IMG/VR virus record: IMGVR_UViG_3300035670_000585
Span: 1-38,886 of that record
From: a virus
DNA length: 38,886 nt
Strand: one strand, 5' to 3'
Shown: in pieces, positions 1,395 through 37,244 of the stretch
How the letters are laid out: the number at the start of each line of letters is the position of its first letter
Numbering within the stretch: position 1 is the stretch's first letter
Made by a program: the position numbers and the translations under genes
Notes under the pieces: generated by a model
Databases searched by the model: none
The model's input: only the letters and a program-made list of their open reading frames with translations
What the model was told of the DNA's origin: nothing

Positions 1395-1838
1395 TTATTC
1401 AGAATCCTTCTTGTCATTCAGCTCCTTTAGCTTTTTCATACTCTCTACATAGCCTTTTAGAACGATTCTTGCCTGATCAGGAGTTAGATGAAATTCTTCA
1501 AGAGACTTAACCAGCGTAATGGTTGATTGTGAAAATTCTTTTTTGAAATATTTAAGGTCCTCTGGGAGTGGAGTGTATTTTACATCAGATTGTTTTCTGA
1601 TGTCCGATTCACCTAAAAGAAAAGCCTGGTCAACATCAAAATAGTTTGCCAATGCCTCTATCATATCCTTTTTGATGTTTAGGGATCCAGAAACGAACCG
1701 AGACAAGGATGCTTTGTTGCTCCCGACAGCTTTGGCAATTTCTTCAAGTGTTACATCTTTTTCTACTTTCAAAAACATAAAACGCTCTTTAAATGTAGCC
1801 ACTCTGCCACCTCTTCTTAAAACAGCATTTGTAAACAT
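1395..1838 (-). CDS. CI-like repressor, XRE-family HTH
   Basis: VTLEEIAKAVGSNKASLSRFVSG is an HTH motif. ATG 1838 is preceded by GAGGGGG. The gene is divergent from the Cro-like gene and adjacent to int. Confidence 0.8.
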   Translation of the reverse strand: MFTNAVLRRGGRVATFKERFMFLKVEKDVTLEEIAKAVGSNKASLSRFVSGSLNIKKDMIEALANYFDVDQAFLLGESDIRKQSDVKYTPLPEDLKYFKKEFSQSTITLVKSLEEFHLTPDQARIVLKGYVESMKKLKELNDKKDSE

Positions 1839-1919
1839 AGTATTCCCCCTCAATAATATAATAGTATTTTAATATTTAAAATAATTTTGCTATAAATAAA
1901 ACAAATTTAATTAAACATG

Positions 1920-4572: not shown

Positions 4573-5418
4573 ATGGAATTAATAATTCATAGCCCTTCTG
4601 AGGAAGGATTCATTCAGGAAATAACCTTCAATCATGAAGAAATCAAAAAAGAGCTTACAACAAGGCTAGAAAAGTACAAGGGGCTTGTCTATTCAGAAGA
4701 GGAAATAAAACTTGCAAAAACAGACCGGGCAACCCTGAACAAGTTCAAGGAAGCCATTGAAAGCAAGCGTAAAGAAATTAAGGCATTATGCCTAAAACCT
4801 TACGATGAATTTGAAATCAAGATCAAAGAGATTGTAAACCTTGTCAATGAGCCAGTTAAAGATATTGACAACCAAGTAAAGGCATTTGAAGAGAAGCAAA
4901 AACAGGATAAAAAGAAAGTCATTGAAGGTATGTACTCTGATATGATTGGTGATCTTATCGAGATCCTACCCCTGAAAACTCTCTGGAATGAAAAATGGCT
5001 GAATGCAACATATAAGCTTGCTACCATATCGGACGAACTCAGGAAAGAAATTGAACGTGTATCCAGTGACCTAAAGCATATTGAGTCAATCAAGTCAAAG
5101 TTTGAAACTGAAATGAAAAACACTTATCTTAACACCCTGTTGTTAAGTGAAGCCCTTGCAATCAAAACACGTCTGGAAGATCAGGAAATAAAGTTGGAAG
5201 AGTTTAAGGCAAAGCAGGAAGCAGAAAAGAAACCAGAACCACCACCTGAATTTCCTGCTACACCAGCACCAACTTTCAGCCAAGCAATGGAAATGGAACA
5301 GGTGATCGAGCCTGAATTAGAGGTTATAGAATTTAGGCTTTGGGTTACGCCTGAACAGAAGGCTTTTTTACGGAACTATATTTTCGAAAATAATATCAAA
5401 TTTGGAAAGGTACGGTGA
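4573..5418 (+). CDS. DUF1351-like protein (RecT-associated)
   Basis: Coiled-coil-rich 281-aa protein directly upstream of RecT. The N-terminus has the shape of DUF1351 proteins from Gram-positive phages. Confidence 0.5.
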   Translation: MELIIHSPSEEGFIQEITFNHEEIKKELTTRLEKYKGLVYSEEEIKLAKTDRATLNKFKEAIESKRKEIKALCLKPYDEFEIKIKEIVNLVNEPVKDIDNQVKAFEEKQKQDKKKVIEGMYSDMIGDLIEILPLKTLWNEKWLNATYKLATISDELRKEIERVSSDLKHIESIKSKFETEMKNTYLNTLLLSEALAIKTRLEDQEIKLEEFKAKQEAEKKPEPPPEFPATPAPTFSQAMEMEQVIEPELEVIEFRLWVTPEQKAFLRNYIFENNIKFGKVR

Positions 5419-5423
5419 TTAAA

Positions 5424-6272
5424 ATGGCAGTTAACAATAGCTTAGTAAAGCAAGCAGCAAAACCAACATTTTCAGTATTCATTACTCAGGGAGCAGTAAA
5501 GCAGAAGATCAATGAAATGATGGGTGGAGAGTCTGGACAAAGGTTTATGACTCAAATTATTTCAGCTGTTACAGCAAACCCAAACCTTGCAACATGTGAG
5601 CACATGTCAATCCTTAATTGTGCATTCCTTGGGGAGTCGCTAAAACTATCACCATCCCCTCAACTGGGTCAATATTACATGGTTCCTTTTGAGGATCGTA
5701 AAAACAACCGCACTGTCGCAACATTTCAGTTAGGTTACAAAGGATACATTCAACTTGCATTAAGGTCAGGGTACTATAAAAAATTGAATGTCCTGGCAAT
5801 CAAAGAGGGGGAGCTTGCCAACTATGATCCCCTGAACGAGGAAATTACCTGTAATATTATCCAGGACGAAGCACAAAGGGAAGCAGCACCAACTATTGGG
5901 TACTATGCTATGTTTGAATATCTGAATGGATTCAGAAAGGCAATGTACTGGTCAAAGGCTAAAATGGAATCCCATGCATTGAAATACTCGCAGGGTTATG
6001 CAGCAGACAAGAAAAAAGGAACCGCGTGGACTTTCTGGACAAAGGACTTTGATGGGATGGCGTATAAAACCATGCTTCGCCAACTTATATCAAAATGGGG
6101 CGTAATGTCCATTGATCTCCAAAATGCTTTTGAAAGCGATATGACATTTAAGGACTCATCTGGAACAACCTCTTATGTAGAGGAAACACCAGACACTCAA
6201 GAACAAATACCTCAACCTGACCAGCAACAGGAACAACCTTCAGAAAACGATACTCCAGATTTTTTGAAATAA
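5424..6272 (+). CDS. recT: RecT-family single-strand annealing protein
   Basis: Contains CAFLGESLKLSPSPQLGQYYMVPF and ATFQLGYKGYIQLALRSGYY. An alternative GTG start is at 5415. Confidence 0.85.
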   Translation: MAVNNSLVKQAAKPTFSVFITQGAVKQKINEMMGGESGQRFMTQIISAVTANPNLATCEHMSILNCAFLGESLKLSPSPQLGQYYMVPFEDRKNNRTVATFQLGYKGYIQLALRSGYYKKLNVLAIKEGELANYDPLNEEITCNIIQDEAQREAAPTIGYYAMFEYLNGFRKAMYWSKAKMESHALKYSQGYAADKKKGTAWTFWTKDFDGMAYKTMLRQLISKWGVMSIDLQNAFESDMTFKDSSGTTSYVEETPDTQEQIPQPDQQQEQPSENDTPDFLK

Positions 6273-6334: not shown

Positions 6335-7189
6335 ATGGAAGGCTGGATAAAACTTCATCGTAAACTTTTAGAAAATCCAATATTTTTGAAACCTGAATTA
6401 CTTCAATTATTTGTGTATTGTCTTTTGAAAGCCAACCATGAGCCAAACAAGATTATATTCAATAATAAAGAACAGATTATTGAACGCGGTCAATTCATTA
6501 CAGGAAGGGACGTTCTGAGTAATGACTTAAAGCAAAATGGGCGTACTACCTACGATAGACTGAAAATTCTTGAGAACTTGAAAATTATCACCATCAAATC
6601 CAACAACAAATTTAGCCTTGTAAGCATTGTAAATTATGACTTGTACCAGATGAGAGAAGAAGAATCCAACAACAAACCCAACAACCAGCCAACAACCAGC
6701 CAACAACCAGCCAACACAAACAAGAATGATAAGAATGATAAGAATGATAAGAATGATAAGAAGGAGGAGGAAGAAGGGCTCACCAAAATTATCCAGTTTT
6801 ATCAAAACAATTATCTTCAATCAGTAACACAACAAACAGCCGAGGAGATTGGACATATTTTGGATGATGGAATAACACCGGAGCTATTCATTGAAGTTAT
6901 GAAGGATTCCCTTGAACCATCAATCACCCATAAATGGAAATGGACAAGCAAAGTCCTAATAACGGCACATAGCAAAGGAATATTGACAGTAGAGCAGTAC
7001 CAGCAGCACAAAAAGGCAGAGGAATTGAGACGGGAAAAGGAAAAACAACAGAGACAACCGATTCCTTTTAGTCCAAAGCCAAGGATAAAAGCAGAGTTTA
7101 CAGCAGAAGATTGTTGGTTTGAAGTGGGTTCTATTGCTGAAAGATACAAACGGAAAAGAGAGGAGGAGAACAAAATTGACCAGGGATGA
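6335..7189 (+). CDS. Replisome organizer with C-terminal DnaD/DnaB_2-like domain
   Basis: N-terminus GWIKLHRKLLENPIF; C-terminus IIQFYQNNY...KWTSKVLITAHSKGILTVEQY. ATG 6335 follows GAGGTGG. Confidence 0.75.
   Translation: MEGWIKLHRKLLENPIFLKPELLQLFVYCLLKANHEPNKIIFNNKEQIIERGQFITGRDVLSNDLKQNGRTTYDRLKILENLKIITIKSNNKFSLVSIVNYDLYQMREEESNNKPNNQPTTSQQPANTNKNDKNDKNDKNDKKEEEEGLTKIIQFYQNNYLQSVTQQTAEEIGHILDDGITPELFIEVMKDSLEPSITHKWKWTSKVLITAHSKGILTVEQYQQHKKAEELRREKEKQQRQPIPFSPKPRIKAEFTAEDCWFEVGSIAERYKRKREEENKIDQG
6678..6757. repeat. Iteron-like tandem repeats inside the replisome organizer gene (candidate ori)
   Basis: CCAACAACCAG occurs 3 times (6678-6710) plus a partial 4th copy. AAGAATGAT then occurs 4 times (6722-6757). 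Confidence 0.8.
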
Positions 7190-11000: not shown

Positions 11001-11072
11001 CTGATGTCAGCTAAGGGTAAGCGCATGGGGTTGGTTGCTCCATGATCCAGGGTTCAAGTCCCTGGCATCGGT
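11001..11072 (+). ncRNA. tRNA-like element (non-canonical cloverleaf)
   Basis: 7-bp acceptor stem CTGATGT/GCATCGG with 2 G-U pairs. T arm is CAGGG-TTCAAGT-CCCTG, and the D loop contains GGG. The anticodon stem is 7 bp with loop TTGGTTG (GGT), the variable region is 3 nt, and U8 is missing. Confidence 0.3.
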
Positions 11073-11196
11073 CTAAATGGAGTTAGCAGACACAGGATCA
11101 TATGGTCCTGTTATGTTTAGGGAAACGGTACATCACGATGGTAAGCGCAGGGGTGGGAGTGCTGTGATGTAAAGCAAAATTTATTTGAGGTGTTAT

Positions 11197-18715: not shown

Positions 18716-18769
18716 TGCCGTGGATAGGCTTGCAACCGAAAAGAGGGTTCCTGACCTCCTGCCACGGCA
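18716..18769 (+). other. Conserved hairpin element A (related to element B)
   Basis: The stem TGCCGTGG/CCACGGCA encloses GTGG-a-TAGG...C-GAAAAG-a-G-GTT...CTCC-TGCCAC. It lies in the gap upstream of the first glycosyltransferase. Confidence 0.6.
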
Positions 18770-18815
18770 GACTTTTCAGGAATATATTCAAACACTTACA
18801 GGAGGTGTTTTTTTT

Positions 18816-20982: not shown

Positions 20983-21042
20983 AATTTGTGGCTAGGTCGA
21001 CGGACTGAAAAGGAGTTACCCCCTTTCTCCCTGCCACAAATT
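20983..21042 (+). other. Conserved hairpin element B (related to element A)
   Basis: The 10-bp stem AATTTGTGGC/GCCACAAATT encloses TAGG...C-GAAAAG-GA-GTT...CTCCCTGCCAC. It lies in the gap upstream of the rSAM gene. Confidence 0.6.
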
Positions 21043-21076
21043 TATCTATAAGGGGCTTAACGAAAGGGGCGTTATT

Positions 21077-32267: not shown

Positions 32268-32534
32268 ATGGAAGAATTAATCAAACTAGCTGCCGGGAAT
32301 GGCGTTTGGGCAGTATTATCAATTATCCTTATCAAATGGATACTGGACACGAACAAAGACCGGGAAGCAAAGCTACAACAGACCATAGCCGACAATCAAC
32401 AGATAATTCTAAGGATGACTGAGAAGCTGGAAGTATTGAACCACCTGAAGGCGGATGTTGATATTATTCTGGAATGCTTAACATGTCCGCCTGAAACAAT
32501 CACTAAAAGGGGGATAACATCGAATGGCAATTAA
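32268..32534 (+). CDS. BhlA/UviB-type holin-like protein
   Basis: N-terminal TM (GVWAVLSIILIKWIL), then DTNKDREAKLQQ and a coiled coil. It lies directly upstream of and overlaps the amidase. Confidence 0.6.
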   Translation: MEELIKLAAGNGVWAVLSIILIKWILDTNKDREAKLQQTIADNQQIILRMTEKLEVLNHLKADVDIILECLTCPPETITKRGITSNGN

Positions 32535-33210
32535 GATTATGCTTGACCCTGGGCATGGTGGCACAGAGCAGGGAGCAACCGCCAACGGATATATTGAAAA
32601 AGACTTGAATCTAAAACTCTCTCTTCTATTAAAATACGAGCTTCAACGGTGTGGATTTACCGTGTACATGACTAGAGAAACGGATATAAATGTTGACTTG
32701 GAATTGAGAGGTAAGCTTGCTACACAGAATCAATGCGACTGCCTTCTGTCTGTTCACTTTAATGCAATGGGACGGGCTAATGTTGCAAAAGGTTTCGAGG
32801 CAATATACAGTTTTCAGAGTGAATCCGCTAAATGGATAGCCTTGTGTATATCAAAGCAGGCTGTTGGATTAGGATTATACGATAGAGGTGTCTGGTCTAA
32901 GGAGAGCGATAATTACAAAGGGCATAACTGGTATGGTGTGTTGAGGTCTTCCGAACCATGCCCTGGTGTTATTCTTGAAGGGCTATTCCTTGATAATGAA
33001 AATGACGTGAGATTTTTGGCTGATCCCGGATTCCTGAAAAAACTGGCCGTTGCTTATTGTAAAGGTGTGTGTGCTGCGTACTCTATCGCATATGTTCCAG
33101 AACCGGTATCGGCTCCTGTAAAACATGATCCAGCAGCAGGCCAAAAAGAAATATTAAATCAGGTAAAAACAAAAATGCAGGAGATAATATCGTTGCTTGA
33201 AAAACTGTAG
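32524..33210 (+). CDS. N-acetylmuramoyl-L-alanine amidase (Amidase_3) endolysin
   Basis: LDPGHGG...GA, EKDLNL and LSVHFNA motifs. Confidence 0.85.
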   Translation: MAIKIMLDPGHGGTEQGATANGYIEKDLNLKLSLLLKYELQRCGFTVYMTRETDINVDLELRGKLATQNQCDCLLSVHFNAMGRANVAKGFEAIYSFQSESAKWIALCISKQAVGLGLYDRGVWSKESDNYKGHNWYGVLRSSEPCPGVILEGLFLDNENDVRFLADPGFLKKLAVAYCKGVCAAYSIAYVPEPVSAPVKHDPAAGQKEILNQVKTKMQEIISLLEKL

Positions 33211-33241: not shown

Positions 33242-33269
33242 TCCCTGGATTATTCCAGGGAATTTTTTT
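33242..33269 (+). terminator. Rho-independent terminator of the late operon
   Basis: TCCCTGGA-TTAT-TCCAGGGA followed by a T7 run. Confidence 0.8.
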
Positions 33270-33336: not shown

Positions 33337-33585
33337 TTATGCTTGGGGCATTTTTGTTATTCCTGTTTTTATAAATAGTTCCTCGATTGTTTTTATGTCC
33401 GTTTTAATAAAATCATCATTTCCACTTGGACTAACAAGGCATATATCAACCTTATCACGAATCATATCAAACAGTTCATTGGAGTAAAACAACCAACCAA
33501 TCATACCACGATTCTTATTATAAGCGTTTTCAATCGTATCATATAAAAAAACGTGAGCATCCCTATAAAATACTGCTACCATCAT
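33337..33585 (-). CDS. Hypothetical small protein (last gene of accessory operon)
   Basis: 82-aa ORF whose start overlaps the upstream stop within the junction repeat. Confidence 0.55.
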   Translation of the reverse strand: MMVAVFYRDAHVFLYDTIENAYNKNRGMIGWLFYSNELFDMIRDKVDICLVSPSGNDDFIKTDIKTIEELFIKTGITKMPQA

Positions 33586-33875
33586 CCATCCCCCTTCACT
33601 TCTTCAAAAAAACAATCAATTTTACATGCTATGCAAGATCCAGGCTCATCGTAGCAAATACAATCAACATTTAATTGTATATCTTCTATCAAAAATTTCA
33701 GCTTCTGATTCTGCTGGCGTAGTTTTTCGTTTTCATCTTCTATATAATCATATAACTCCTTTGAACCTTCATGGCTCAAACAAGCGACCTTTCTTGATTC
33801 ACAGTCTAATATAATCTGTGCATATATTACCGGTATATCAAATCCGCATATAACGCATTTGTTAGTGTTGTCCAT
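33582..33875 (-). CDS. Small Cys-rich / coiled-coil protein (97 aa), paralog of 34709-34870
   Basis: ATG 33875 overlaps the upstream TGA. Sequence has MDNTNKCVICGFDIPVIYAQIILDC, NEKLRQQNQKL and CIACKIDC, and ends EVKGDG. Confidence 0.6.
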   Translation of the reverse strand: MDNTNKCVICGFDIPVIYAQIILDCESRKVACLSHEGSKELYDYIEDENEKLRQQNQKLKFLIEDIQLNVDCICYDEPGSCIACKIDCFFEEVKGDG

Positions 33876-34282
33876 CACCCATCCCCCTTCACTTCTTTCA
33901 TAAGATTTCTGAATTTCCCGTACTCTACTAAATTTATTTTGCTGTATTTCACCCATTCAAGTGTTTTTTCCAACGCCTCCACCAGCTTCTCATTCTGCTT
34001 GCGAAGTTTATTGACTTCCTTTGTTAATGCTTCAATTATTTCCTTTAGTTCAATATCTTGAAACTCTGAATTAATATCCATTCGATCATCCTCACTTTCT
34101 GGATTCAATTTTTCATCATGCATTACTTTTACAATGTCAGCTATATCAACCGAATATGAGATATTTTTATCAATATCTTTTAAAATCAAATACCCATTTC
34201 TAATTTTCAGAACTCCGCTTTTAAATTCAACATTAAATCCCTTTTTTAATCTCTTTGATTGCTCAAAACGAATATCCATCAT
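33875..34282 (-). CDS. Small coiled-coil protein (135 aa)
   Basis: Contains KEVNKLRKQNEKLVEALEK and ends EVKGDG. ATGA junction. Confidence 0.6.
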   Translation of the reverse strand: MMDIRFEQSKRLKKGFNVEFKSGVLKIRNGYLILKDIDKNISYSVDIADIVKVMHDEKLNPESEDDRMDINSEFQDIELKEIIEALTKEVNKLRKQNEKLVEALEKTLEWVKYSKINLVEYGKFRNLMKEVKGDG

Positions 34283-34542
34283 CCCTCACCCTCGCTTTCT
34301 AATAGTTCAAACGGACTATATGCACACTTCCTGCAATCATTCCAATACTCATACATTTCTGTAATTTTTTGCTTTAATTGTTCATTTTCTTTTTTTAGAT
34401 TATCCATTTCTTTTCCAAGGTTTAATATTCTGTCTAATAAAGTTGGATTATCTCCTCTACATTGCGACAAATCCGCACATAAATTACATGGAAACCCAAC
34501 CGTATTTGGATATTTACCAAAACATTCTCTTTTATCCATCAT
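34279..34542 (-). CDS. Small Cys-rich / coiled-coil protein (87 aa)
   Basis: Contains CFGKYPNTVGFPCNLCADLSQC and MDNLKKENEQLKQK, and ends ESEGEG. Confidence 0.6.
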   Translation of the reverse strand: MMDKRECFGKYPNTVGFPCNLCADLSQCRGDNPTLLDRILNLGKEMDNLKKENEQLKQKITEMYEYWNDCRKCAYSPFELLESEGEG

Positions 34543-34712
34543 CCCTCACCCTCGCTTTCATTTAGTTTTGTGTCTATAAAATTTTTATTAAATATATAAA
34601 AATCTGTGCAATTCATAGGGTTTGGTTCACAGTCTTTCTTTCTACCACTGCATTCCTTGCAACACTCCATTGATTTCGGTTGATGTGGAAATTCTGATAA
34701 TTTAACTTTCAT
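34539..34712 (-). CDS. Small Cys-rich protein (57 aa, not in ORF track)
   Basis: Translated by hand as MKVKLSEFPHQPKSMECCKECSGRKKDCEPNPMNCTDFYIFNKNFIDTKLNESEGEG. Both ends are ATGA junctions. Confidence 0.5.
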   Translation of the reverse strand: MKVKLSEFPHQPKSMECCKECSGRKKDCEPNPMNCTDFYIFNKNFIDTKLNESEGEG

Positions 34713-34870
34713 CCCTCACCCTCGCTTTCTTCGATGTAGTCTGACAGTTCCTTTGTTCCCTCATGACATAAACAGGCAACTTTTCCTGATTTATAGTCTA
34801 ATATAATCTGTGCATATGCTACTGGTATATCAAATCCGCATATAACGCATTTGTTAGTGTTATCCATCAT
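34709..34870 (-). CDS. Small Cys-rich protein (53 aa, not in ORF track), paralog of 33582-33875 N-terminus
   Basis: Translated by hand as MMDNTNKCVICGFDIPVAYAQIILDYKSGKVACLCHEGTKELSDYIEESEGEG. Confidence 0.5.
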   Translation of the reverse strand: MMDNTNKCVICGFDIPVAYAQIILDYKSGKVACLCHEGTKELSDYIEESEGEG

Positions 34871-35052
34871 CCATCACCCTCGCTTTCTTCTGGAACAAAA
34901 ACAGTATTTACTTCTTCATAGTCAGATTCGTTAAATTTTTCTTGACAAGCTATGCAAATAAATCTTTCTCCAGTCCATGAAATTGAATAATAATTTCCCT
35001 TCACAAAGAAGATTTTATCTGATTCGCAATTTGGGCATATTAACTTAATCAT
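34867..35052 (-). CDS. Small zinc-ribbon protein (61 aa)
   Basis: Contains CPNC...CIAC and ends ESEGDG. Confidence 0.55.
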   Translation of the reverse strand: MIKLICPNCESDKIFFVKGNYYSISWTGERFICIACQEKFNESDYEEVNTVFVPEESEGDG

Positions 35053-35261
35053 CCCTCACCATCCTCTGAATCTATTAAATTAATTTCAAATCCAATTTTG
35101 TTTAATAGTGTATTAATATCTGTCAAAATTTCATTTTTTTCATTTTCTTGTTTTACTAAAATATCTGTAGAATTTTCAAGTTCTATTTTCAATCTTACGT
35201 TTTCTTTAATTAACTTTGCATTTCTTTCTTCCAACTCTTTGATATATTCCTCCATCATCAC
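35049..35261 (-). CDS. Small coiled-coil protein (70 aa)
   Basis: Contains EERNAKLIKENVRLKIELEN and ends SEDGEG. Confidence 0.55.
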   Translation of the reverse strand: MMMEEYIKELEERNAKLIKENVRLKIELENSTDILVKQENEKNEILTDINTLLNKIGFEINLIDSEDGEG

Positions 35262-35265
35262 TCAC

Positions 35266-35718
35266 TCACTTTCCAATATTTTCATACCATCCAGGAAACA
35301 ATATATTTGACAAAATCAACAAATTCGATGCCCAAATCAATTTATATATAATACTCTCTCCCATTGACCCACATCTAATATTTAAAGCTGTTGTAACCAG
35401 ATCAATCAACAGATGTGACGCAGCACCGATGCACAGGAACAACAAATATTTATGACCCTGGATTAAGTATATCGAAAAGAGTAGAATCGGTGTTCCCCAG
35501 TGTATGATTCCCCTGTGCTTGGTTAGACTGTCGATTAATGCTCCTACAAATGGAAATAATGAAGATATAGTGCTCTTTGAACTATCAAAATCAGATAATA
35601 GTGCACCGATCCCGGCATAAACTATCGCATCGGGACCGGATGTTTTCATTAGTTCTTTTGCAACCAGACCGACAAGCAATCCAGCAGCCACATGTGTTTT
35701 ACCTGTCGATTCAATCAC
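35266..35718 (-). CDS. YdjM/DUF457-like membrane-bound metal-dependent hydrolase
   Basis: Multi-TM protein with THVAAG at the N-terminus, plus KHRGIIHW and AASHLLIDL. Confidence 0.6.
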   Translation of the reverse strand: MIESTGKTHVAAGLLVGLVAKELMKTSGPDAIVYAGIGALLSDFDSSKSTISSLFPFVGALIDSLTKHRGIIHWGTPILLFSIYLIQGHKYLLFLCIGAASHLLIDLVTTALNIRCGSMGESIIYKLIWASNLLILSNILFPGWYENIGK

Positions 35719-35932
35719 CTTCTTTTATCTTTTGTATTTCATCCTTCACAATCTTTCGTATTCTCTCGTCAAGGTTTTTCATTTGGAGCTGATTATATAC
35801 AGCCACATTCACGAATGATGAAAAGTCACCCGGAGGAATTTCGTTTATCTCCTGTAAATATTCTCCCAGTATAGGTAATATTTTAAAACTTGCCCTATCA
35901 CCTAATTTGTATAACTTCCGTTCTTTTCCCAT
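35711..35932 (-). CDS. Small protein, first gene of the accessory operon (possible regulator)
   Basis: ATG 35932; the tracked ORF extends to a TTG at 35965. It ends KEGD with its stop overlapping the next start. Confidence 0.5.
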   Translation of the reverse strand: MGKERKLYKLGDRASFKILPILGEYLQEINEIPPGDFSSFVNVAVYNQLQMKNLDERIRKIVKDEIQKIKEGD

Positions 35933-35979
35933 TCCCCCAACCCCTTTAATTTTATTTTCCTCCAATCTTATAGTATTTT

Positions 35980-36042
35980 TGTGTGCAAATCTAGTATACG
36001 ACCATTATATTACTTGATTGTGTGCAAATCAAGTGTTAAAAT
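35980..36042. promoter_or_regulatory. Overlapping divergent promoters with repeated 12-mer operator
   Basis: Rightward promoter: TTGATT 36014-36019, 17-nt spacer, TAAAAT 36037-36042. Leftward promoter: TTGATT (reverse complement of 36027-36032), 17-nt spacer, TATAAT (reverse complement of 36004-36009). TGTGTGCAAATC occurs at 35980-35991 and 36019-36030. Confidence 0.65.
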
Positions 36043-36074
36043 GTATTTATTAAATATTTTTAAGGGGGTATTAT

Positions 36075-37244
36075 ATGAAATTATTAAATCGTGGTACTCT
36101 GTTTTTGTCTCTAATTGCCGGGATTGTTCTTATTATCATCAGCCTGGTGTTCACCTGGTCATTTTTCTATTCACTTTCAACCGGATTCCTTGCTTTCTGT
36201 TTTGCCATCTTTGGGGTTGTGAATGATTTTGGCAAGGTAATATTCCTCCCTGCCGTAATTGTGGCTGCAAGTCAAAATAAACGTGGTCACGCTTTCTTTT
36301 TTAGTGTTATATGGACAATATGTTTCGTGATCTCGCTGGTTGCCTCCCAATCGTTTGACCTCAACCAGAAAAATGACATCAAAAATAAGAACTTGATTGA
36401 ATCATCCAGCTATAAGCGGCAGGCTGAAATATTTGAAACAACAAAGGATTCTATTGTCAATTTAAAAAATGATATTGTCAACTTAAAAAAGAATCGTGTT
36501 GACGATGAAAAAAGGATACGCGAAAACTATGCTCCCCGGATTGAGACGGCCAGAAAATTGAATATGTTGACCATCAATCCTGAATCTGTTGCAGAGATCA
36601 GTAAACGCAGAGACAAAGAAATCAAGGATTTGGATGTAGTTATTGAAATGAAACAAAAACAACTATTAGAAAAAGAATCTGCCCTGTCATCCATCAACAA
36701 CCAATTTGCAGATGTGGGAAAAAAGGTTGAGCATACAGAGGGACTACTTTCTTTTTCACATTGGCTGGCTGGTATATTTGGAGGTAACCCAGACAACTTG
36801 ATCGGATGGTTTTACATACTCAAAAATGTTTTTAGTGAATTTTTAGCACTCGGTCTCCTGCTGTTGGGTGGTATGGAGCTGGAGCAAAAATCAACAAAAC
36901 TACTCCCAACCTCCCCAGATGACAAGCCAAGAAAAAAATCAACAGACATGGATGACCAGCCAACTGAAAAATCAACCAAGCTGGATGAGCCTAAATTTAA
37001 GCCTCAGTTAAGTTTAGTCAAGTCAAAAGAACAGGAGTTTAATCAACTTGTTAAATTGTACATAGACAATATGGAGGATCCAAATCAACCAGGCACCTGT
37101 CTTGGTTATCAGAAAATAGGTAAAAAAATTGGTGTGTCATCTTACCAAGCATCAAAAATCAAAGGGCACCTTGAAAATTTAGGTATAATTAAGGTAGTAG
37201 ATGGTCAAACAATAATCACAAACAAAAAGGCTAAACTTGCTTAA
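36075..37244 (+). CDS. Membrane protein with coiled coil and C-terminal winged-helix-like domain
   Basis: About 4 N-terminal TM segments, a coiled coil (aa ~110-230), another TM, a linker with 3 KST repeats, and a C-terminus GYQKIGKKIGVSSYQASKIKGHLENLGIIKV. Confidence 0.7.
   Translation: MKLLNRGTLFLSLIAGIVLIIISLVFTWSFFYSLSTGFLAFCFAIFGVVNDFGKVIFLPAVIVAASQNKRGHAFFFSVIWTICFVISLVASQSFDLNQKNDIKNKNLIESSSYKRQAEIFETTKDSIVNLKNDIVNLKKNRVDDEKRIRENYAPRIETARKLNMLTINPESVAEISKRRDKEIKDLDVVIEMKQKQLLEKESALSSINNQFADVGKKVEHTEGLLSFSHWLAGIFGGNPDNLIGWFYILKNVFSEFLALGLLLLGGMELEQKSTKLLPTSPDDKPRKKSTDMDDQPTEKSTKLDEPKFKPQLSLVKSKEQEFNQLVKLYIDNMEDPNQPGTCLGYQKIGKKIGVSSYQASKIKGHLENLGIIKVVDGQTIITNKKAKLA

Follow-up and report, generated by a model that had tools for sequence, protein, structure and literature searches.

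Relation to described gene-boundary repeats

Translational coupling through an overlapping stop and start codon (AUGA), with the Shine-Dalgarno (SD) sequence placed inside the upstream gene, is a classic arrangement in bacterial and phage operons. Phage genomes are also mosaic, with breakpoints at gene boundaries, and the respective roles of conserved linkers and of random illegitimate recombination followed by selection have long been debated. Here, we describe an array of eight minus-strand open reading frames (ORFs; o1 to o8, positions 33337-35261) that are linked by near-identical junctions in the viral record IMGVR_UViG_3300035670_000585, which was analyzed over its entire 38,886 nucleotides (nt; hereafter the window). 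We propose, with a probability of roughly 0.65, that the array forms the distal part of one translationally coupled polycistronic operon, made up of small accessory genes and carried by a temperate, siphovirus-like phage of Bacillota, and that its junctions have been kept alike by recombination-type processes. Among described systems, the start-associated sequences (SAS) of the Cluster K mycobacteriophages are short, asymmetric, SD-containing repeats, which occur in many copies a few bases before start codons, are restricted to non-structural genes of different families, sometimes include the upstream stop codon, and are conserved beyond what pairing with the 16S rRNA explains (PMC3203893). 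The PeSL (promoter early stem-loop) elements of T4-type phages combine an intergenic promoter with a stem-loop terminator and flank ORFans, and their modular shuffling has been shown (PMC2839356, PMC4122927).

The array is like ordinary coupled operons in having ATGA or GTGA stop/start overlaps at all seven internal junctions (J2-J8, listed below), with the SD 6-9 nt upstream inside the preceding ORF, and ATGA overlaps are a feature of further operons in this phage. It is unlike them in that its junctions are nearly identical over 21-28 nt between unrelated genes, imposing an ESEGEG or EVKGDG peptide on the upstream product, whereas the ordinary coupled junctions of this genome are at background identity only. 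With SAS, it shares SD-containing repeats of one orientation before the starts of non-structural genes of different families. However, the 13-bp SAS consensus GGGATAGGAGCCC is not that of the array, the host phylum differs, and the window phage is not a member of Cluster K. Further, SAS are scattered over half a genome and about half of them have an upstream 17-bp inverted repeat (extended SAS, ESAS; PMC3203893), whereas the array repeats are consecutive junctions of a single operon, lack an inverted repeat, and are read as a peptide tail. As a repeated start-associated, SD-containing sequence, the array nevertheless most resembles SAS.

PeSL elements are comparable in that repeated regulatory sequences flank small ORFans in a variable region for which shuffling is proposed. 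The array junctions, in contrast, contain no promoter, hairpin, or inverted repeat, lie inside coding sequence, and would act on translation; moreover, while shuffling has been shown for PeSLs, it is only proposed for the array junctions, the analogous events in loci L009, L010, and L016 having occurred at other junction sequences. The linkers of the modular theory are similar in consisting of short sequences shared at gene boundaries together with a phage RecT and exonuclease, and mosaic breakpoints are found at the junctions of related loci (PMC3945230). However, the classical cases lie between functional modules of lambdoid coliphages, whereas the array repeats lie between single small genes of Bacillota phages. 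When compared with the lysogenic-conversion (moron) loci of prophages, which lie between lysis genes and attachment site and have a promoter and terminator of their own, the array is found between endolysin and integrase, and its promoter and terminator are consensus matches only. The preliminary description did not recognize the organization as a described system; it is more aptly viewed as translational coupling with analogues in SAS (PMC3203893) and PeSL (PMC2839356), built around a widespread core.

Unrelated repeat systems were also considered and rejected. No IntI-type integrase adjoins the array and its junctions, direct repeats of 21-35 nt, lack the inverted symmetry of attC sites (~60-140 bp), which argues against an integron; the only integrase is a phage-type tyrosine integrase located ~3 kb from the array, beyond other genes. 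A CRISPR array is set aside given that the intervals are protein-coding and range from 158 to 408 nt, as against the uniform ~26-72 nt of the spacers that separate the non-coding, 23-47 nt repeats of CRISPR arrays, with no adjacent cas gene. Finally, the array region has no match in Rfam that would point to a structured RNA.

Anatomy and statistics of the junctions

The eight ORFs were recovered at the coordinates given in the preliminary description, and are linked by two junction variants, viz., type A GAAAGCGAGGGTGAGGGATGA and type B GAAGTGAAGGGGGATGGRTGATG (the latter also given as GAAGTGAAGGGGGATGG). Numbered after the ORF that each precedes, the junctions are:

35252-35274, minus strand: J1, weak version GGAAAGTGAGTGAGTGATGATGG; stop codon of the upstream YdjM-like gene, then the GTG/ATG/ATG starts of o1
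35049-35072, minus strand: J2, partial type A, the fifth copy, GATTCAGAGGATGGTGAGGGATGA
34865-34887, minus strand: J3, type A with one mismatch
34707-34729, minus strand: J4, type A, exact over 21 nt and then ATGAAA (two mismatches over 23 nt)
34537-34559, minus strand: J5, type A, exact
34277-34299, minus strand: J6, type A, exact
33873-33895, minus strand: J7, type B, exact, with a GTGATG start
33580-33602, minus strand: J8, type B, exact

Mismatches are counted against the type A 23-mer GAAAGCGAGGGTGAGGGATGATG, which is exact at J5 and J6 and, if only the first 21 nt are considered, at three junctions, as originally noted. The degenerate core GRKGRKGRRTGA has seven matches in the window, every one of them within the array, against 0.3 expected, and the number of such junctions expected by chance is none. 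When 28-nt windows at gene starts are compared, pairs of array junctions have a mean of 20.3 of 28 bases in common (maximum 25), as against 10.8 ± 2.6 (maximum 19) for the 1035 pairs drawn from 46 other gene starts of the same genome; the sequences of five further ATGA-overlap junctions elsewhere in the genome are unrelated. J1, at which the stop is followed by GTG/ATG/ATG within 5-11 nt, is 81.8% identical to J6 over 33 aligned columns (two gaps). The conservation spans ~28-35 nt, taking in the first codons ATG ATG GAT (MMD) of o3, o5, o6, and o7, and also covers synonymous positions of the tail. Viewed as repeats, the copies are direct, 21-39 nt in length and spaced 158-408 nt apart, and all eight are on the minus strand, directly before the starts of unrelated small non-structural genes. 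The feature is real and statistically solid.

Two independent assemblies are 100% concordant across J3-J7. As a separate observation, the Logan assembly of the same sample breaks within the array, at 34832-34853, at the o3/o7 repeat (contigs L006 and L001); such arrays are likely to be fragmented, and hence under-represented, in short-k assemblies. These two contigs are the window phage itself, from the same sample and at 100% identity, and hence provide no comparative information.

Predicted ribosome binding and translational coupling

As proposed earlier, the same short sequence is simultaneously the C-terminal tail of the upstream protein, a strong SD, the stop codon, and the next start. 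On the mRNA, the junction AGAAAG-C-GAGG-G-UGA pairs with the Bacillota 16S tail 3'-UCUUUCCUCCACU-5' with two single-base bulges, the pairing elements being AGAAAG and GAGG/GGUGA and the variable base of the core being a predicted bulge. The computed duplexes range from -12.7 to -16.8 kcal/mol before o2-o8, with -12.2 kcal/mol at J1 before o1, a Bacillota-type tail being assumed in place of that of the host. The first ATG, overlapping the TGA, comes 6 nt after the last G of the GGAGG-equivalent and the second ATG 9 nt after it, and the SD of each downstream gene is within the preceding ORF. These are the standard anatomical features of translational coupling, which we infer to operate here.

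Each junction is an extended SD that occupies the final codons of the gene before it (GAA AGC GAG GGT GAG GGA, i.e., Glu-Ser-Glu-Gly-Glu-Gly), with the TGA stop overlapping the next ATG (ATGA) and often accompanied by a second ATG. A ribosome that ends one small protein would be handed directly to the next start at each junction, so that all cassettes could be produced from a single mRNA without intergenic space. Translated in frame, the SD gives the tails ESEGEG and EVKGDG, so that their acidic, Gly-rich character is mostly a by-product of the ribosome-binding site. The mechanism of translation is ordinary, textbook coupling, and no new biological mechanism is shown. The strength of the SD cannot account for the identity of the junctions, because 46 other genes of the phage, with a mean pairing energy of -12.5 and values down to -19.9 kcal/mol, pair equally well or better with unlike sequences. 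A "super-SD" as the complete explanation is rejected on the same grounds.

The small proteins and their separate origins

The eight ORFs encode the following proteins, most of which end in a junction-derived tail:

35049-35261, minus strand: o1, 70 amino acids (aa); predicted coiled coil; tail SEDGEG (stop)
34867-35052, minus strand: o2, 61 aa; CxxC...CxxC, zinc-ribbon-like; tail ESEGDG (stop)
34709-34870, minus strand: o3, 53 aa; C-x2-C...C-x2-H domain, paralog of the o7 N-terminus; tail ESEGEG (stop)
34539-34712, minus strand: o4, 57 aa; Cys-rich family (CC.EC...KDC.PNP.NC.DFY); tail ESEGEG (stop)
34279-34542, minus strand: o5, 87 aa; Cys-rich N-terminus and coiled coil; tail ...PFELLESEGEG (stop)
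33875-34282, minus strand: o6, 135 aa; coiled-coil segment; tail EVKGDG (stop)
33582-33878, minus strand: o7, 98 aa when started at the junction (124 aa in the mechanical ORF); tail EVKGDG (stop)
33337-33585, minus strand: o8, 82 aa; last gene of the operon, without a junction tail; small alpha/beta protein

That these are real genes is borne out by purifying selection, by families of homologs, and by a codon model built from 15 large genes of this phage, under which all ten ORFs of the operon to which the array belongs have a positive score in the proper frame alone, the five other frames being negative. The o7 protein is laid out as an o3-like zinc domain leading into a long helix and a Cys-rich C-terminus, and o3 is such a domain running straight into the tail; the o3 protein and the o7 N-terminus are 82% identical over 45 aa (81% over 162 nt), with a ratio of nonsynonymous to synonymous divergence (dN/dS) of 0.09 and a dS of ~1.0, at which synonymous sites are near saturation. 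The cassettes, originally described as unrelated in length, are not all unrelated in sequence: besides the o3/o7 paralogy, o6 and o7 have a 64-nt coiled-coil stretch in common; beyond these, no significant similarity was found among the eight cassettes. Likewise, coiled-coil segments do recur, but the similarity among those of o1, o5, o6, and o7, which had been taken as a common module, is weak (z 3.7-5.2).

An exhaustive phmmer search of the concatenated proteins against 1.84 billion representative proteins recovered families for four cassettes. The o4 family has at least 15 members (the best, P0009, at 77% identity), the o8 family three (P0013, P0016, P0029), and the o3/o7 domain family three (P0024, P0027, P0030), in which the C-x2-C...C-x2-H motif is kept; the o5 N-terminus has one homolog (P0025, 40%). 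In this search o1, o2, and o6 matched only themselves, and o6 was also its own sole match in a word-indexed protein search. The homologs of o4 carry other tails, such as ...FKDCN (stop) in P0009 and ...LVGQA (stop) in P0012, and the homology to o4 ends about nine codons before its ESEGEG tail. The o3/o7, o4, o5, and o8 cassettes are separate families that bear other tails elsewhere and have separate origins.

No significant matches were obtained for o1-o8 in PHROGs, Pfam, or NCBIfam, with the zinc-ribbon matches of o2 in Pfam all sub-threshold, or for the o3/o7, o4, and o8 families in PDB profile searches. The AlphaFold2 model of o7 shows a long helix extending from a small, zinc-finger-like beta domain (predicted local distance difference test [pLDDT] 80-94 for the N-terminal domain and helix), for which Foldseek returned small zinc-domain matches only, none of them significant; that of o8 (pLDDT 78) had no Foldseek match. 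PADLOC gave zero defense-system matches for o1-o8, the YdjM-like protein, and an adjacent 389-aa protein.

Spread of the junction core in other phages

Close relatives of the window phage were not encountered in the collections searched. By blastn, the array DNA has no relative among 50,697 GenBank phages, and the late region of the window gave only a 79-nt methyltransferase match in the same set. Exact and degenerate junction patterns found nothing in viral contigs, nor did locus searches in these contigs with o7, the YdjM-like protein, or the 389-aa protein singly. A degenerate 24-mer yielded only single matches in genome and metagenome contigs, which were high-GC or unrelated (a cyanobacterium, a Woesearchaeote, and L004) and are judged to be chance, and the type B core GTGAAGGGGGATGG is absent from every other fetched locus.

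A distant syntenic relative is the Logan contig L014 (run SRR23950823), which has an o8 homolog, a homolog of the 389-aa protein, a YdjM-like protein at ~40% and tail proteins at ~45% identity, in an arrangement that is likewise convergent with the lysis genes. Its junctions AAAGAAAGAGAGGGTTGAGGATG, AAAGAAAGCGAGGGTTGAGGATG, and CAAGAAAGCGAGGGCGAGTAGATGGAT join cassettes unlike those of the window, with tails KEREG, KESEG, and QESEGE directly before the stop. The core GAAAGNGAGGG, followed by stop and start, is also present in L009, L010, and L016. The core, GAAAG(C/T/A)GAGGG, was detected in 34 IMG/VR contigs in a scan that demanded two cores 146-176 nt apart, for which ~1 contig would be expected in random sequence (a rough inference, as the size of the collection is not given). 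These contigs alone hold 78 core sites, 66 with an assignable upstream ORF, of which 46 are in the GAA-AGN-GAG-GGN (ESEG) frame, the commonest tail being ESEG (stop) at 27 sites; such counts are not independent because the contigs are partly interrelated. Across 87 core sites, an in-frame stop follows within seven codons and a start codon within 14 nt in 57 cases. Of the 36 pairs of ORFs that share a junction within a locus, not one is paralogous, and core-bearing contigs span 33-62% GC. The same core hence flanks different cassettes in other phages, in L014 as well as in the IMG/VR and further loci, and is a real but fairly ordinary feature that occurs in dozens of them. The 12 nt after the core are, in turn, phage-specific: 7.2 of 12 positions are alike within a phage versus 4.1 of 12 between phages, a difference reached by 0 of 2000 label permutations. 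The junction of the window is, in our proposal, a local variant of the core plus stop and start, as it recurs in small-gene arrays of other phages.

Many core sites are the C-termini of YopX-family proteins (...NPELLESEG, stop), with GAAAGYGAGGG as the last codons, for instance in the IMG/VR loci L027, L035, L042, L022, L031, and L034. The ending of o5, ...PFELLESEGEG, resembles them, though o5 is not a YopX protein. In L053, consecutive small ORFs end in ESEVEEG and ESEGEEG. As an unrelated observation, a 216-aa phage ORF of L015 contains an 18-nt tandem repeat of at least 17 copies (5438-5884), encoding the hexapeptides CSFAE(E/W/R/G).

Exchange and probable recombination at junctions

Cases in other phages illustrate how cassettes may be exchanged at such boundaries. 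The otherwise unrelated loci L009 (9968-10181) and L010 (779-992) have only an o4-homolog cassette in common (a 55-aa gene; 215 nt at 98.6%), both breakpoints of which are at a repeated junction motif, TAAGATTTTxGTGxGG. In L016, a DNA cytosine methylase gene lies between a 47-aa ORF and the YdjM-like gene, flanked by an exact 24-nt duplication GGAGGTTTCAAATGACAAGTAAAA (4939-4962 and 5993-6016), each copy of which holds the tail EVSNDK with its stop, an SD, the start, and the first four codons (MTSK). L013 and L014 have repeated linkers of their own, of 25 nt and 56 nt, respectively. Within the window, the type A junction before o3 is up to 96% like those of its non-homologous neighbors and 64% like that of its paralog o7; further, the first ~75 nt of the o3 and o7 ORFs are ~95% identical and the remainder ~72% (the split point having been picked post hoc; with a split after codon 17, Fisher p is ~0.008 at synonymous sites). 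This high-identity stretch resembles a tract left by conversion or recombination, one end of which is in the junction. The earlier suggestion that the linkers permit gain, loss, or shuffling of cassettes thus receives indirect backing from the L009/L010 cassette, the L016 methylase, and the o3/o7 tract, and is plausible.

Recombinases of the Rad52-like type in phages act on sequences that are short and diverged, and are a driver of phage mosaicism (PMC3945230); the RecT/RecE-like pair of the window phage could catalyze recombination at its junctions. We envisage that cassettes of separate origin took on the tail and junction of a resident array, and that duplication, gene conversion, and short-homology recombination most likely keep the junctions alike, because an identity of 21-28 nt exceeds what ribosome binding needs. 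Recombination at these sites would automatically preserve both the reading frames and the coupling.

Several points weigh against a coupled operon whose junctions are maintained by recombination. The examples of exchange stem from other phages, no close relative of the window phage having been found in the collections searched, and are partly at other junction sequences. Binding of a phage-specific factor, as proposed for SAS, could also give rise to the identity of the junctions. The host 16S 3' end is assumed, with the canonical tail backed by the fit of the other SDs of the phage only, and many of the 34 IMG/VR contigs are interrelated. Finally, in the window the operon is a separate unit, moved to a place between endolysin and integrase and convergent with the lysis genes, from which expression in the prophage is conceivable, though unsupported.

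Alternative explanations

The junctions might instead reflect selection on translation initiation alone, the exact sequence or the binding of a host or phage factor being the optimum and recombination playing no part, an explanation first offered for SAS repeats (PMC3203893). The high complementarity to the anti-SD, the coincidence of the variable base of the core with a predicted bulge, the recurrence of the core over a wide range of GC content, and the SAS precedent of conservation beyond SD pairing (PMC3203893) all speak for it. We still consider it unlikely, given that equal or stronger pairing is reached elsewhere in the phage by genes with unrelated sequences, that the part following the core is phage-specific, which fits concerted evolution better than a universal optimum, that conservation reaches the first codons downstream and synonymous positions of the tail, and that exact junction duplications flank the inserted gene of L016. 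A quite different origin, by tandem duplication of one small gene whose copies diverged beyond recognition save at the doubly constrained junctions, would explain the o3/o7 paralogy, the 64-nt stretch of o6 and o7, and the mixture of Cys clusters with coiled-coil segments in several cassettes. However, the other cassettes show no significant similarity, the o3/o7, o4, o5, and o8 families occur singly and with other tails in unrelated phages, the paralogs have a dS of ~1.0 and junctions only 64% alike as against up to 96% between non-homologous cassettes, and junction-sharing pairs in other phages are never paralogous (0 of 36), making this origin very improbable; a single recent duplication, which the preliminary description had named as the outcome that would undo its proposal, is rejected on account of the unrelated cassettes, the same dS, and the separate families. 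Least credible, to the point of being negligible, is that the array is a non-coding repeat system (CRISPR-like, integron attC, or mobile miniature element) or an assembly artifact: direct repeats at 158-408 nt and the break in the Logan assembly might suggest as much, but the stretches between the repeats differ in length and code for proteins under purifying selection, the repeats themselves contain no inverted repeat or hairpin and have no Rfam match, neither an IntI-type integrase nor a cas gene is adjacent, and the two independent assemblies agree fully across J3-J7.

The remaining alternative, advanced in the preliminary description, is a lysogen-expressed island for immunity, superinfection exclusion, or counter-defense at the attR end of a prophage, constituting a new cassette system. 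Anti-defense loci typically encode small orphan proteins with many zinc-binding motifs, and none of the eight array proteins has a known function; the operon also lies between endolysin and integrase, on the strand of int and of the cI-like repressor rather than that of the late genes, and operator-like repeats accompany its separate promoter-like site. The window is, however, not an integrated prophage but a circularly closed temperate phage genome of ~38.76 kb without host flanks, because its first 127 bases equal its last 127 and its ends are spanned at 100% identity by the independently assembled Logan contig L006 (run SRR11566350); after integration, the array would sit ~5 kb from attR, assuming attP just downstream of int. 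Moreover, homologs of o4, o5, and o7 and the membrane-protein/YdjM module are co-directional with, and beside, replication and recombination genes: the closest o4 homolog (L009) lies in an early region, after RecT, among YopX, MazG, DUF3310, and RusA genes; the o7 homologs adjoin G39P, RusA, and VRR-NUC genes; the o5 homolog is upstream of HNH and terminase genes; and, in L015 and L016, this module stands first in replication or recombination operons, while in L014 it comes after a cro-like gene. Because homologs of four cassettes (o3/o7, o4, o5, and o8) and of the module are in early lytic regions elsewhere, lysogen-specific expression is not supported and, with PADLOC also giving no matches, we regard the island as rather improbable. 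Judged by synteny with these relatives, early lytic growth is the most likely time of expression, and a counter-defense role in early infection would be compatible with an early coupled operon.

Implications for gene-boundary mosaicism

Beyond this phage, the ESEG-type junction could be a portable, in-frame linker of ~20-30 nt used by many Bacillota phages, which both couples translation and offers homology to RecT-type recombinases, a generalization that we advance tentatively and hold to be doubtful at present. If true, single small genes would be inserted, deleted, duplicated, and swapped from phage to phage as ready-to-express cassettes, amounting to an integrase-independent cassette system for early accessory, possibly counter-defense, genes, and the modular theory of phage evolution would gain direct evidence, at the level of sequence, for its linker version. 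Phage-specific junction variants around a widely shared core provide a tractable system for the question of mosaicism at gene boundaries. In practical terms, the core with an ESEG-type tail is a simple signature for finding, and correctly starting, tiny genes missed by gene callers or by ORF cut-offs, and marks early accessory arrays, in which host-takeover and counter-defense proteins are expected.

The ten-gene operon and its candidate control sites

The array comprises genes 3-10 of a ten-gene minus-strand operon, the remaining features of which are:

35711-35965, minus strand: gene 1 of the operon; start at TTG (84 aa) or, more likely, at the ATG at 35932 (73 aa)
35266-35718, minus strand: YdjM-like inner-membrane protein, 150 aa, Pfam PF04307
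36004-36032, minus strand: best sigma-70-like promoter candidate for the operon, TTGATT-17-TATAAT (10 of 12 matches; consensus match only)
36014-36042, plus strand: divergent promoter candidate for the 389-aa gene
36075-37244, plus strand: 389-aa membrane protein (counterparts in L014, 3835-4932; L015, 1374-2507; L016, 3390-4508)
33242-33261: GC-rich hairpin where the endolysin gene and o8 converge; plus-strand terminator by score

The first gene, for which the Logan annotation calls the 73-aa form, codes in its own frame only, has no Pfam match, and ends in ...KEGD with a GTGA-type overlap of 8 nt with the YdjM-like gene; by eye, its product looks ribbon-helix-helix-like. The YdjM-like protein matches PF04307 with 48.9 bits (E = 6.9e-13; gathering threshold 29 bits) and has homologs at 35-47% identity in L014, L015, and L016. 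In the window and in these three loci, its gene is always adjoined by that of a ~370-390 aa membrane protein with a coiled-coil middle and a C-terminal helix-turn-helix (HTH)-like segment, which is inverted in the window relative to L014-L016.

The operon promoter candidate falls in the sole sizeable intergenic gap (35966-36074). Within the array, promoter-like matches (23) are not above those of shuffled sequence (25.8) and no terminator-like hairpin was found; the only good candidate heads the ten-gene operon, and the promoter previously ascribed to the array itself is not upheld. The sequence TGTGTGCAAATC occurs exactly twice in the window, at 35980-35991 and 36019-36030, the second copy being inside a palindrome, CTTGATT-N7-AATCAAG, that overlaps both -35 hexamers; these repeats and the palindrome look operator-like, as would suit a dedicated regulator. 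No operator common to the cI/cro region and the operon promoter was seen, which neither supports nor excludes control by the repressor, and inspection of the promoter region by eye revealed no LexA (Cheo) box. The hairpin at 33242-33261 may end the minus-strand operon too.

Genome setting

The layout of the genome is temperate and siphovirus-like, as indicated by PHROG and Pfam matches:

38380 through the end to ~883, minus strand: tyrosine integrase
1395-1853, minus strand: cI-like HTH repressor
2014: cro-like gene
3347: RecE/YqaJ-like exonuclease
5415: RecT
6335: DnaD-like helicase loader
9963: RusA-like resolvase
12870: terminase
14248: portal
32524-33210: endolysin

Methyltransferases and tail genes are also encoded. 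The DnaD-type loader, the usage of SDs, and the low GC content point to a low-GC Gram-positive host (Bacillota). A tRNA-Thr gene (anticodon GGT; 11001-11073, plus strand) separates the early region from the ParB-methyltransferase and terminase genes. The int-alpA RNA motif (Rfam RF02996) is present twice on the plus strand, at 18717-18781 and 20985-21054 (40.6 and 56.8 bits), both matches exceeding the gathering score and each lying in the gap that precedes a late-region structural gene. The DnaD-like helicase-loader ORF contains a 9-nt tandem repeat, AAGAATGAT, of about five copies (6713-6774).

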